Part shown: piece by piece, positions 1 through 2,842 of the stretch | Layout: each line of letters opens with the position of its first letter | Position numbering within the stretch: the first letter of the stretch is position 1 | From: Gammaproteobacteria bacterium | GTDB lineage: Bacteria; Pseudomonadota; Gammaproteobacteria; GCA-001735895 | Assembly: GCA_029862005.1 (NCBI GenBank) | Contig: JAOTYD010000008.1 | Span: forward strand, 4,472-68,471 | DNA: 64,000 nucleotides | Reading direction: 5' to 3' | Made by a program: the position numbers and the translations under genes | Notes under the pieces: model-generated | Databases searched by the model: none | Told to the model about the DNA's origin: nothing | Seen by the model: the letters and a program-made list of their open reading frames with translations, nothing else

Positions 1-1067
1 CGCGCGTCAAGAGCTTTGCCGAGGCGCAGCTTGCCAGTATGACCGAGTTTGAAACCGAGCTGTCGCCCGGTCTGTTTGCCGGCCAGCGCCTGATCCCGGT
101 CAATACCGCTGGCTGCTACGTTCCCGGCGGTCGCTACGCGCATATAGCCTCGGCCATCATGAGCATCACCACGGCACGCGTTGCCGGCGTCAAGCAGGTT
201 ATCGCCTGCTCGCCGACGCACCCGGACCGCGGCGTGCACCCGGCGATTATTTACGCGGCCGATCTGGCCGGCGCCGATACCATACTCTCTCTCGGAGGCG
301 TGCAGGGCATCGCAGCAATGGCCTTCGGTCTTTTTACCGGCCACCCGGCCGATATCCTGGTCGGGCCCGGTAATCGTTTTGTCGCCGAGGCCAAGCGGAT
401 TCTATATGGGCGAGTCGGCATCGATCTGTTCGCAGGGCCCACTGAAATCCTGGTGATTGCGGATGACACGGCGGATCCGGAAATCGTTGCCTGCGACCTG
501 GCAGGGCAGGCCGAGCACGGGCTCGATTCACCCGCGTGGCTGGTTTCCACCTCTGCCGAACTGGCACAGCAGGTGATCGACCTGATGCCGAAGTATATCG
601 AACGCATGGCAGAGCCGAATCGCTCCACGGCTGAGAGTTCCTGGCGTGATTACGGTGAAGTGGTCGTGGTCGGTACGCGTGAAGAGGCGGTCAAGGTCAG
701 CGATGATTATGCCCCCGAACACCTCGAGGTGCAGTGTGAAGATCTCGACTGGTGGCTGCAGCATTTAAGCAACTATGGCTCGCTGTTTCTCGGTGAAGAA
801 ACCACGGTCGCCTATGGTGATAAGTGTTCCGGCACCAACCATATCCTCCCAACCAAGGGCGCGGCTCGCTATACCGGGGGCTTAAGTGTCAGCAAATTTA
901 TCAAGGTACTGACCTGGCAGCGTATGACAGAAGAAGCGAATCGCGATGTCGGTGCGGTTACCGCGCGAATTTCACGTTCCGAGGGTATGGAGGGGCATGC
1001 GCGTTCCGGTGATGATCGCCTGTATAAGTATTTTCCGGGAGAGGAATTCGAACTGGGTATCGAGTAA
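1..1067 (+). CDS. Histidinol-dehydrogenase-family NAD-dependent dehydrogenase (HisD paralog); 5' end lies outside the window, and the reading frame is open from nt 3
   Basis: Matches HisD core blocks ([28 protein letters not shown]). Context with an SDR and an ADH rather than his genes suggests a paralog such as HpsN. Confidence 0.75.
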
Positions 1068-1076
1068 AATCTCGCC

Positions 1077-1853
1077 ATGCCCGCGATTCTTGACCAGTTC
1101 AAGCTAGCCGGTAGTAACTTTGTTGTGACCGGAGCAAGCTCCGGAATCGGTCGTGCCATGGCAGGTTTCCTGGCGCAGGCCGGTGCCGGTGTGGTGCTGG
1201 TGGCGCGACGCGAAACCGCGTTGGCCGAGGCCGTCGACGAAATTAATACCGGTGTTGACAAAGCCAGTTACGTGGTCGCCGACCTTGAACAGCGCGATCA
1301 GCTTGCGGAAATTGCCGCTCAATGCAAGTCGTCGATCAAGGGTGGGCATATCGATGGCATCGTTAATGCTGCCGGACTTAACCTGCGCGAACCGGTTGAG
1401 CAGGTATCGATCGAGAGCTGGGATGTCACGATAAACCTGAACCTTTCAGTTCCATTTTTCTTCACGCGCGAATTTATACCAGAGATGCGCAGTCGAAAAT
1501 TTGGCCGCATCATCAACATTGCCTCGTTGCAATCGACGCGCGCTTTTCCAAATGGTCTGCCCTATGGTGCTTCCAAGGGTGGCATCTGCCAGTTGACACG
1601 CGCCATGGCAGAAGCCTGGTCACGCCACGGTATTTGCTGCAACGCGCTGGCACCCGGATTTTTTCCGACCGAGCTCACGGCCCCGGTATTCGATAATCCC
1701 GAGAGCCGGGATCGGTTCGCGCAACAAACCGCGATCGGGCGTAACGGCGAACTCGAAGATTTATCGGGAGCTACCATATTTTTTGCCTCGCCGGCGTCGG
1801 GTTATATTACCGGCCAGACCCTGGCGGTCGATGGAGGATTCACCGCAAAATGA
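1077..1853 (+). CDS. Short-chain dehydrogenase/reductase (SDR) family oxidoreductase
   Basis: N-terminal Rossmann motif VTGASSGIGRAMA and a YGASK catalytic block. Starts 10 nt after the upstream stop. Confidence 0.85.
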   Translation: MPAILDQFKLAGSNFVVTGASSGIGRAMAGFLAQAGAGVVLVARRETALAEAVDEINTGVDKASYVVADLEQRDQLAEIAAQCKSSIKGGHIDGIVNAAGLNLREPVEQVSIESWDVTINLNLSVPFFFTREFIPEMRSRKFGRIINIASLQSTRAFPNGLPYGASKGGICQLTRAMAEAWSRHGICCNALAPGFFPTELTAPVFDNPESRDRFAQQTAIGRNGELEDLSGATIFFASPASGYITGQTLAVDGGFTAK

Positions 1854-2842
1854 AAGCACTAGTTTACACCGCCAACGAGGAGATGACTTACCGCGATGAG
1901 CCGGAACCGACGCCCGACCAGGGCGATGCGCTAATTGCAATCGAATCTGTCGGTATCTGTGGGTCCGACATGCACGCCTACCTTGGACACGACGAGAGGC
2001 GGGTGCCACCTTTGATACTGGGTCATGAGGCAGTAGGCACGGTCATCGAGGGTGGCAATAGCGGGCAACGGGTCGTGTTGAATCCACTCATCACCTGTGG
2101 GATCTGCGACGATTGTCTCGGCGGACGCCAGAACCTGTGCGCGAGTCGCGACTTGATCGGTATGTATCGCGCCGGCGCTTTCGCCGAGAAAATTGCGATT
2201 CCCGAGCGTAACCTGATCCCGGTACCGCAAGGAATGCCGAGTGAACACGCGGCGCTGACTGAACCGGGTGCGACCGGTCTGCATGCGGTTTTGCTCGCCG
2301 AGCGGATCGTCAGTCGGCCCTTGAGCGAATCGTGCGCGCTCGTCATTGGCGCCGGTTCGGTCGGTTTACTGACCGCGTTGATACTGCGTGACAAGGGCGT
2401 CGAAGAAATCGTGGTCGCCGAAACCAACCCGTTGAGGCGCGAACTGGTTGCACAACACTGCGATTTTGAGTTGATTGATCCGATTACTGAACAGCCAGCG
2501 GCACAACGCTTCGATTGCGTGTTTGACGCGGTCGGTGGAGCAGTCACGCGCGAGCAGGCGGTGCCGGCTACTCGATCTGGCGGGATTATCGTGCATATCG
2601 GTTTGATGGATAACAAGGGATCGATGGACGTGCGCGCGATGACTCTGCGCGAGATCACGTTTATCGGCACCTATACCTATACCCCGTTAGATTTGGGCGC
2701 CACGCTGCATAAATTAAACAGCGGTGCGCTTGGCAGCCTGAACTGGATTGAACAACGACCATTGGCCGATGGCGCCGAGGCATTCAGCGAGTTGCTACAT
2801 GGGCAATGTGCTGCGCCTAAGGTTGTTTTAAGTACCGTTTAA
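1850..2842 (+). CDS. Zn-dependent medium-chain alcohol/polyol dehydrogenase (MDR family)
   Basis: GICGSDMHAYLGHDE zinc-ADH signature and a GAGSVGL NAD-binding motif. Its ATG overlaps the SDR stop (ATGA). Confidence 0.85.
   Translation: MKALVYTANEEMTYRDEPEPTPDQGDALIAIESVGICGSDMHAYLGHDERRVPPLILGHEAVGTVIEGGNSGQRVVLNPLITCGICDDCLGGRQNLCASRDLIGMYRAGAFAEKIAIPERNLIPVPQGMPSEHAALTEPGATGLHAVLLAERIVSRPLSESCALVIGAGSVGLLTALILRDKGVEEIVVAETNPLRRELVAQHCDFELIDPITEQPAAQRFDCVFDAVGGAVTREQAVPATRSGGIIVHIGLMDNKGSMDVRAMTLREITFIGTYTYTPLDLGATLHKLNSGALGSLNWIEQRPLADGAEAFSELLHGQCAAPKVVLSTV

Follow-up and report, generated by a model that had tools for sequence, protein, structure and literature searches.

The window analyzed here is a stretch of 64,000 nucleotides (nt) of the gammaproteobacterial contig JAOTYD010000008.1. 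Its first 2842 positions (1-2842) very probably carry hpsN-hpsO-hpsP, which encode the core enzymes of the established pathway that oxidizes 2,3-dihydroxypropane-1-sulfonate (DHPS), as judged from homology, residue conservation, synteny and strand arrangement. DHPS, an algal sulfonate, is one of the main compounds by which carbon and sulfur are exchanged between phytoplankton and bacteria; its turnover is followed with hpsN as a marker gene. A first-pass annotation of the same DNA had read this segment as an hpsNOP-like DHPS operon composed of a histidinol dehydrogenase (HisD) paralog, a short-chain dehydrogenase/reductase (SDR) and a zinc-dependent alcohol dehydrogenase (Zn-ADH), adjoining a glycerol catabolic locus. 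The three open reading frames (ORFs) are indeed present on the same strand, the first one as a 3' fragment at the window edge, and the operon assignment holds: structure matches, sequence identities, active-site residues and synteny all agree with it, and every feature of HpsN, HpsO and HpsP that sequence can test was found.

The host is an uncultured Woeseiaceae-like gammaproteobacterium. Its closest relatives are uncultured Woeseiaceae and other Gammaproteobacteria known from metagenome-assembled genomes (MAGs), with an HpsN 92% identical to that of the window, and a sediment origin is consistent with the closest MAG names and with Joint Genome Institute (JGI) sample records. No link between Woeseiaceae and DHPS was found in the literature searched. 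The hpsNOP genes are already known from biochemical and structural work on Cupriavidus, Ruegeria and Dinoroseobacter, and from surveys over hundreds of genomes. The novelty is mild and resides in the host clade and in a trimmed layout, restricted to the enzyme genes, between a glucose-methanol-choline (GMC) oxidoreductase gene and a glycerol locus. The locus adds uncultured Woeseiaceae-like bacteria to the carriers of a fully conserved hpsNOP core; the finding is otherwise ordinary and opens no new mechanism.

Identity of the three dehydrogenases

The first gene is cut by the left edge of the window, which retains a 354-codon 3' fragment. It is complete (434 residues, positions 751-2055) on the metagenome contig ENA ERZ28013244, hereafter L001, which reaches 988 nt further left than the window and is 99.97% identical to it (4 mismatches out of 11,853 nt). 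Pfam analysis assigns the gene product to the HisD family (PF00815, 400 bits), and it passes the NCBIfam hisD model TIGR00069 (400 bits, cut-off 244). When the three proteins are compared with every solved structure in the PDB, the full-length first protein scores 582 bits with Cupriavidus pinatubonensis HpsN (8v35) and 530 bits with Ruegeria pomeroyi HpsN (8wwe), whereas the seven true HisD structures reach at most 256 bits, the top one being 4g07. The alignment against characterized Hps enzymes and HisD that the first-pass annotation had recommended comes out clearly for the former, and the outcome that it had named as refuting, a grouping with HisD together with his genes upstream, was not observed. 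Blastp against the annotated reference cluster gives 60% identity with C. pinatubonensis HpsN. As had also been claimed, the paralog is devoid of his neighbors: none occurs among the scanned main ORFs of the 64 kb or in the 988 nt upstream, no search with his queries having been run on the window.

The active site points in the same direction. According to PMC11382572, a five-residue motif of HpsN (122-126) ends in His126, which HisD lacks; this residue is a zinc ligand in free HpsN and hydrogen-bonds the sulfonate in the complex, Lys353 being the other sulfonate contact. The motif is retained as GRYAH at residues 43-47 of the window protein, where the Brucella HisD has GTASY, and the alignment places a tyrosine of the latter (4g07) at both positions equivalent to His126 and Lys353. 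Also retained are the zinc ligands Gln248, His251, Asp352 and His411, the catalytic residues Glu318 and His319, the sulfonate-contacting Lys353, and H359. In all, 13 out of the 14 HpsN positions named in PMC11382572 are identical, five of them forming the GRYAH motif, and the sole difference is the conservative S226T. The first gene product is HpsN, the predicted NAD+/Zn-dependent R-DHPS 3-dehydrogenase, and not the HisD of histidine biosynthesis.

Of note, most plasmid-borne homologs at 58-62% identity carry the RefSeq/PGAP label "hisD" (histidinol dehydrogenase). Because the generic hisD model accepts HpsN and RefSeq labels most of its homologs as histidinol dehydrogenase, marker-gene surveys and genome-scale models will misread HpsN unless the His126/Lys353 signature or the linkage to hpsOP is checked.

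The second and third genes are assigned as hpsO and hpsP, also on sequence grounds; Pfam and NCBIfam place their products among the classical SDRs and the zinc-containing medium-chain dehydrogenases, respectively. The top solved-structure match of the HpsO protein is R. pomeroyi HpsO (RpHpsO; 8wwf, 276 bits, 58% identity), followed by two further HpsO-like PDB entries at 261 and 246 bits, whereas true gluconate 5-dehydrogenases score at most 164 bits. Blastp reports 52% identity with C. pinatubonensis HpsO. HpsO proteins are recognized by the SDR Ser-Tyr-Lys triad together with Gln147, which recognizes the C2 hydroxyl, and all four RpHpsO residues named in PMC11131964 (S145, Q147, Y158 and K162) are kept, as S150, Q152, Y163 and K167 in the window protein. 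The PDB entry 6le3, deposited as a gluconate 5-dehydrogenase, is the 261-bit match; it has the HpsO active-site stretch ASLQTTRAFPGG and looks like an HpsO ortholog. The HpsP protein scores 331 bits with 8wwd, and the next match only 109 bits. The 8wwd entry bears the name of a zinc-containing alcohol dehydrogenase and belongs to the same deposition series as 8wwe (RpHpsN) and 8wwf (RpHpsO); we take it to be the Dinoroseobacter shibae HpsP (DsHpsP). The window protein is 51% identical to C. pinatubonensis HpsP by blastp, and keeps the three residues named in PMC11131964 (His59, Glu60 and Glu139) as well as the zinc ligand Cys37, these residues being C37, H59, E60 and E138 in its own numbering.

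By homology, HpsN, a Zn2+/NAD+ enzyme of the HisD fold, would oxidize R-DHPS to sulfolactaldehyde and then to R-sulfolactate at the expense of two NAD+, with the zinc, His126 and Lys353 holding the sulfonate. HpsO and HpsP would bring both DHPS enantiomers into the pathway, in one of two ways. In the original model, still found in PMC11382572 and PMC13335735, they are DHPS-2-dehydrogenases that jointly racemize S-DHPS, interconverting the S- and R-forms via a 2-oxo intermediate. PMC11131964 instead reports that HpsO and HpsP oxidize the C3 hydroxyl of R- and S-DHPS, respectively, to sulfolactaldehyde. Therefore, the racemase role that the first-pass annotation had given to HpsO and HpsP corresponds to one published model and is at odds with the other, and sequence cannot decide between them. 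The sulfolactate would then be desulfonated by the products of genes outside the window.

Gene order and surroundings

The first-pass annotation had described the three genes as translationally coupled; their tight spacing stands with one correction: hpsO and hpsP share an exact ATGA overlap (1850-1853), and the spacer between hpsN and hpsO is 9 nt (1068-1076) and not 10. To place the locus among its relatives, one genome per species was scanned, yielding 80 loci with an HpsN relative. The arrangement is not due to chance, because the order hpsN-hpsO-hpsP is conserved in 66 out of the 69 related loci that have at least 2 kb downstream of hpsN. The window genes also show the co-location of hpsN with hpsO (PF13561) and hpsP (PF08240/PF00107) by which hpsN was selected in PMC11382572. 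Within the 10-kb flanks of the 80 loci, a dctM gene of the tripartite ATP-independent periplasmic (TRAP) transporter family is present in 43, mostly immediately upstream of hpsN, while SuyB-like, SuyA-like and Xsc proteins are found in 30, 23 and 5, respectively. An Ldh_2-family protein occurs in 15, with L-sulfolactate dehydrogenase as its top NCBIfam match (216 bits, under the cut-off of 500).

Pairwise ratios of nonsynonymous to synonymous substitution rates (dN/dS) of hpsN, hpsO and hpsP against four relatives are 0.03-0.09, the same range as for the glycerol kinase gene glpK. Nucleotide identity is 96-98.6% in the 3' end of the GMC gene versus 71-83% in hpsNOP, glpK and glpD. Because it falls sharply at the GMC/hps junction, the locus is a mosaic with a sharp boundary at this point. 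The use of dN/dS as proof of selection after the transporter deletion described below was dropped, since the locus is mosaic.

The 988 nt preceding the window on L001 comprise the last part of the gene for the GMC oxidoreductase and what is left of a TRAP dctM. A fuller context can be read from the related locus L009, where an IclR gene on the minus strand is followed on the plus strand by the GMC oxidoreductase gene, dctP, dctQ, dctM, hpsN, hpsO, hpsP and a major facilitator superfamily (MFS) gene, and then by glpK and glpD on the minus strand. The dctPQM genes are intact before hpsN in L009, L011 and L013. In the window's lineage, an 82-codon dctM stub lies directly upstream of hpsN (L001 487-735, that is 252-500 nt before window position 1), with counterparts at L006 2338-2583 and L007 2543-2779. 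A common deletion in these three contigs joins a point ~69 nt after the GMC stop to dctM codon 369, and the L001 stub has in addition acquired an in-frame stop (CAA to TAA, L001 640-642). L008 and L010 are devoid of even this stub. As far as the contigs indicate, the predicted operon-internal DHPS transporter has been lost in the window's lineage, and a TRAP-less yet intact hpsNOP is found in five independent assemblies (L001, L006, L007, L008 and L010).

DHPS uptake may have moved rather than vanished. L006 and L007, which have the same deletion junction as the window, carry upstream of the GMC gene, and divergent from it, a dctP gene whose product shares 55-61% identity with the DctP that is linked to hps in L009. 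Given this gene, an earlier wording that all transporters had been lost was softened; since L001 stops inside the GMC gene, the status of the divergent dctP is known from L006 and L007 and not from the window's own genome. Such a dctP paralog, 55-74% identical to the L009 protein, diverges from the GMC gene in five assemblies (Table 1), all of which break within it. Because five independent assemblies break there, the region is suggested to be repeated or strain-variable.

The GMC gene lies within 10 kb of hpsN in 19 out of the 80 loci, mostly on the same strand and upstream of the TRAP/hps genes. Since scanning of the interval between the GMC gene and hpsN returned neither a sigma-70-like promoter nor a coding-strand terminator, hpsNOP are probably transcribed by read-through from the GMC gene. 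A 7-bp perfect inverted repeat, TTGCAAT-N11-ATTGCAA (L001 430-454), starts 6 nt past the GMC stop, is conserved in both L006 and L007, and is a possible operator or weak terminator. Relatives differ in what they have between the GMC gene and hpsN: TRAP genes, the stub, nothing, a LacI regulator, or an exchanger-family gene with xsc. The kept 3' end of dctM had been suspected of harboring a functional element at the nucleotide level, as the stub is 87-90% identical between lineages with hpsN ~82% identical. This candidate was rejected, synonymous conservation not being raised: among 14 full-length dctM genes, synonymous-codon identity is 0.47-0.53 in the last 80 codons versus 0.39-0.56 elsewhere. 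The high identity of the stub fits better with a mosaic, recently shared GMC-side segment.

Downstream, hpsP and glpK converge on a 70-nt gap that harbors a GC-rich hairpin with a minimum free energy of -27.5 kcal/mol (z = -2.85 versus shuffles), likely a bidirectional terminator. The adjoining glycerol locus that the first-pass annotation had reported is confirmed, all on the minus strand: glpK scores over its cut-offs, the glpD-like gene falls under its own, and a Rhizobium-type glycerol ATP-binding cassette (ABC) importer follows with its regulator, showing the features expected of such a locus, with a ligand predicted by homology. Homologs of its GlpV-type binding protein occur on 205 Rhizobium plasmid records, and of the 462 plasmid records that match it 250 do so at 60-80% identity; among the solved structures searched, no PDB match above 42 bits was found. 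Because the glp genes lie on the strand opposite to the hps genes and converge on hpsP, the two sets cannot share a transcript, and they are independent, convergent transcription units. Their adjacency is conserved in the clade (L007-L010, L041, L067 and L071). In L008, L009, L010 and L067 a 396-residue MFS gene stands between hpsP and glpK (L009 12338-13528), so that three of the four closest relatives carrying both units have it between them; it is internally deleted in L007 (5990-6270) and absent from the window (gap 2843-2912). The L009 MFS protein has no homology to C. pinatubonensis HpsU at E <1e-3. Within 10 kb, glpK is absent from 70 of the 80 related loci. A genuine glpK (TIGR01311, 682 bits) is also found near hps in a second arrangement (L032, L034 and L035), which comprises glpK, a divergent GMC and GntR pair, suyAB, TRAP genes in L032 only, and hpsNOP. 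Two independent glpK-hps linkages may weakly hint that genes for algal exudates are selected together.

Table 1. Features of the hps locus, of the adjoining glycerol locus and of related contigs
Feature	Sequence	Coordinates	Strand	Remarks
hpsN, 3' part	window	1..1067	+	codons 81-434 of a 434-codon gene; frame from nt 3; stop 1065-1067
hpsO	window	1077..1853	+	SDR-family DHPS dehydrogenase (predicted)
hpsP	window	1850..2842	+	Zn-dependent medium-chain DHPS dehydrogenase (predicted)
GC-rich hairpin	window	2863..2909	.	between the converging hpsP and glpK stop codons
glpK, glycerol kinase	window	2913..4397	-	NF000756, 757 bits (cut-off 498); TIGR01311, 706 bits (cut-off 590)
glpD-like, FAD-dependent glycerol-3-phosphate dehydrogenase	window	4619..6220	-	DAO and DAO_C domains; between glpK and the transporter genes; top match NF008899 (glycerol-3-phosphate dehydrogenase), 258 bits, under the curated cut-off of 360
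Rhizobium-type glycerol ABC importer and regulator	window	6265..12991	-	Pfam and NCBIfam matches
DUF2160 gene	window	6265-6549	-	
Permeases	window	6565-7362, 7367-8254	-	
ATPases	window	8223-9299, 9301-10365	-	
DeoR regulator	window	10366-11235	-	
Binding protein	window	11264-12991	-	575 residues (SBP_bac_1)
GMC oxidoreductase	L001; L007; L009	2-424; 879-2471; 4202-5809		choline-dehydrogenase subfamily, NF002550, 630 bits
Divergent dctP paralog	L006; L007; L043; L067; L071	3-338; 1-246; 6-953; 2-589; 3-671		
Xsc and Na/Ca-exchanger-family membrane protein	L015; L071	565-3530; 4152-7310		beside or inside the hps cluster
glpK, second arrangement	L032; L034; L035	1178-2707; 4136-5659; about 4563		

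Further along the window, a multiheme cytochrome of 792 residues is encoded at 17907-20285, and the genes at 20593-26459 (a Rieske oxygenase, a class III aminotransferase, an RpiR regulator and a DAO-GCV_T fusion) resemble those of methylated-amine demethylation. Genes related to sulfur esters follow, namely those for a sulfatase (40403-41980) and a Sulfotransfer_5 protein (47600-48337), with an ABC system of the Opp type for peptides or oligosaccharides (42096-47425) between the two; no link of this stretch (40403-48337) to the hps genes was seen. In the segment 53081-63660, genes for an aldehyde:ferredoxin oxidoreductase and a ferredoxin occur, as does a series of genes for the molybdenum cofactor (MoeA, ThiS, ThiF, MobA, MobB, MoaA and FdhD). 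A tRNA scan of the window returned no hit.

Standing of the DHPS assignment

Several observations weigh against the DHPS assignment. The pathway is visibly incomplete at the locus, as Pfam, NCBIfam and tblastn analyses report no gene for a sulfolyase, a sulfolactate dehydrogenase, a sulfite exporter or a TRAP transporter in the 64 kb; suyAB were not found there by tblastn, nor was an HpsU homolog found in the window. Neither a sulfolyase route (suyAB, slcD/comDE/xsc or cuyA) linked to hpsNOP nor a dedicated transporter (HpsKLM of the TRAP type or HpsU of the MFS type) adjacent to it is present. The sulfolactate genes that the first-pass annotation had proposed to look for upstream are likewise lacking, the 988 nt holding only the GMC end and the dctM remnant. 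Genes for uptake and desulfonation would have to lie elsewhere or be lacking altogether, the TRAP genes that relatives have within the operon being deleted in this lineage. Moreover, the dN/dS values span a divergence possibly older than that deletion, and Gln147 of HpsO is a weak discriminator, as it also occurs in the true gluconate 5-dehydrogenase 5u9p. Lastly, the HpsN pocket residues appear to specify a C3 sulfonate with a 2-substituent and not DHPS exclusively, because the Bilophila HpsN, which is 55% identical to C. pinatubonensis HpsN and has identical substrate-binding residues, prefers L-cysteinolate over R-DHPS (PMC12814064). The absence of a sulfolyase from the 64 kb is not unusual, because only 104 out of 272 hpsNOP clusters are linked to one (PMC11382572). 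In the gammaproteobacterial relatives L015 and L071, Xsc (TIGR03457, 903-915 bits, over the cut-off) adjoins hpsN, which suggests an Xsc route for sulfolactate in this clade.

The Bilophila enzyme raises the question of whether the window HpsN mainly oxidizes L-cysteinolate (2-amino-3-hydroxypropanesulfonate) to L-cysteate, as in Bilophila and Desulfovibrio, with DHPS as a side substrate. The shared residues speak for it, the Bilophila HpsN being most active on L-cysteinolate; however, the defining trait of the cysteinolate pathway is that hpsN is linked to cuyC, cuyA and cuyB, none of which adjoins the window hpsN, and Pfam scans of the main ORFs returned no DegT/DnrJ-family (CuyC) match, cuyA and cuyB not having been specifically searched. 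As hpsN is instead coupled to its DHPS-specific partners hpsO and hpsP, like in the bulk of the related loci, and the cuy genes do not adjoin it, DHPS is favored and the cysteinolate alternative is very unlikely. A somewhat different doubt, that the operon is a decaying remnant left unused after the loss of the TRAP transporter and of the downstream MFS gene, draws on the reduction of the TRAP genes to a stub with an in-frame TAA, on the MFS gene of L008, L009 and L010 being deleted internally in L007 and missing from the window, and on the lack of desulfonation genes in the window. It is highly improbable, since none of the three ORFs is disrupted or truncated, no catalytic residue has been lost, dN/dS is low, TRAP-less and intact hpsNOP genes recur in the five independent assemblies, a related divergent dctP lies upstream of the GMC gene in L006 and L007, and sulfolyase genes are often unlinked from hpsNOP in the published survey.

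The neighborhood of glpK and glpD invites the idea, put forward in the first-pass annotation, that the triad oxidizes glycerol or another non-sulfonated C3 polyol feeding the GlpK/GlpD pathway. Physical adjacency in the clade and the true glpK of the second arrangement are in its favor, but His126 and Lys353, which contact the sulfonate, are conserved along with the entire zinc site, the glp genes on the opposite strand exclude co-transcription, an MFS gene separates the two units in four relatives, and most related loci lack a nearby glpK. In addition, catalytic efficiencies relative to DHPS are 3460-fold lower for RpHpsO on gluconate, 52-fold lower for DsHpsP on sorbitol and 691-fold lower for RpHpsN on histidinol (PMC11131964), and sulfolactate yields pyruvate or acetyl phosphate plus sulfite upon desulfonation, and not glycerol-3-phosphate. 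The polyol proposal fails on these points and is most improbable; functional coupling with the glp locus was likewise set aside as unsupported, given the opposite strands, the hairpin, the intervening MFS gene and the rarity of glpK near hpsN. The reading of the first gene as a true hisD for histidine biosynthesis, followed by two unrelated dehydrogenases, has next to no probability: TIGR00069 does accept its product, and PGAP does call most plasmid-borne homologs "hisD", but the protein scores far higher with HpsN than with HisD, HisD lacks both His126 and Lys353 (alignment; PMC11382572), no his gene was seen among the scanned ORFs or upstream, and the hpsO/hpsP linkage is conserved, so that this alternative is refuted as far as sequence can show. 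A broader proposal keeps the DHPS enzymes and regards the slot between the GMC gene and glpK as a plastic catabolic island for algal C3 compounds, where DHPS would enter via a transporter new to sulfonates, the candidates being the neighboring GlpV-type ABC system or the divergent dctP upstream of the GMC gene, and where the GMC protein and/or GlpK would join DHPS/glycerol co-metabolism. Its sole support is the recurrence of glpK and the GMC gene beside hps in two arrangements, and we consider it unlikely. The oxidative DHPS pathway core is retained as the best explanation of the three genes.

Comparison with known systems

The glycerol transporter locus is similar to that of Rhizobium leguminosarum (Ding 2012, as cited in PMC7912956): in the account given there, both share the same six-gene architecture with two ATPases, two permeases, a small DUF2160 membrane protein and a ~575-residue binding protein, and both are linked to glpK, glpD and a DeoR regulator. 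They differ in gene order, and the window glpD-like gene stays under the NCBIfam cut-off. No link of this transporter type to sulfonate metabolism was found in the literature searched. As compared with HisD (PF00815/TIGR00069), HpsN has the same fold family, zinc ligands and Glu-His catalytic pair, while its score with HisD structures is less than half of that with HpsN and his context is lacking. The D-cysteinolate pathway of Bilophila and Desulfovibrio (hpsN-cuyC-cuyA-cuyB, PMC12814064) includes an HpsN ortholog with the same binding residues; it has cuyC, cuyA and cuyB and is devoid of hpsO and hpsP, whereas the window locus is the reverse.

The closest systems are those of the characterized DHPS degraders. 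In R. pomeroyi and D. shibae, the hpsKLMNOP(QR-slcD) cluster combines TRAP uptake with HpsN, HpsO and HpsP, for which the structures 8wwe, 8wwf and 8wwd are available. The same order, TRAP-hpsN-hpsO-hpsP, is found in the close relatives L009, L011 and L013, and the top structure matches of the window HpsO and HpsP come from this set. In contrast, the TRAP genes are deleted down to a dctM stub in the window lineage, slcD, cuyA and xsc are not linked, and the host is a gammaproteobacterium instead of a roseobacter. The C. pinatubonensis cluster hpsR-hpsN-hpsO-hpsU-hpsP-suyA-suyB, read from an annotated plasmid record as LacI regulator, hpsN, hpsO, MFS, hpsP, suyA and suyB, converts DHPS to sulfolactate and then to pyruvate and sulfite, and the HpsN structures 8v35-8v37 derive from it. 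Unlike in this cluster, hpsO and hpsP are contiguous in the window, without an intervening MFS gene hpsU; hpsN has no LacI-type hpsR beside it, and suyAB were not found in the 64 kb. Both nevertheless share the three enzymes and their relative order, and the HpsN zinc, catalytic and sulfonate-binding residues are identical between them except for S226T.

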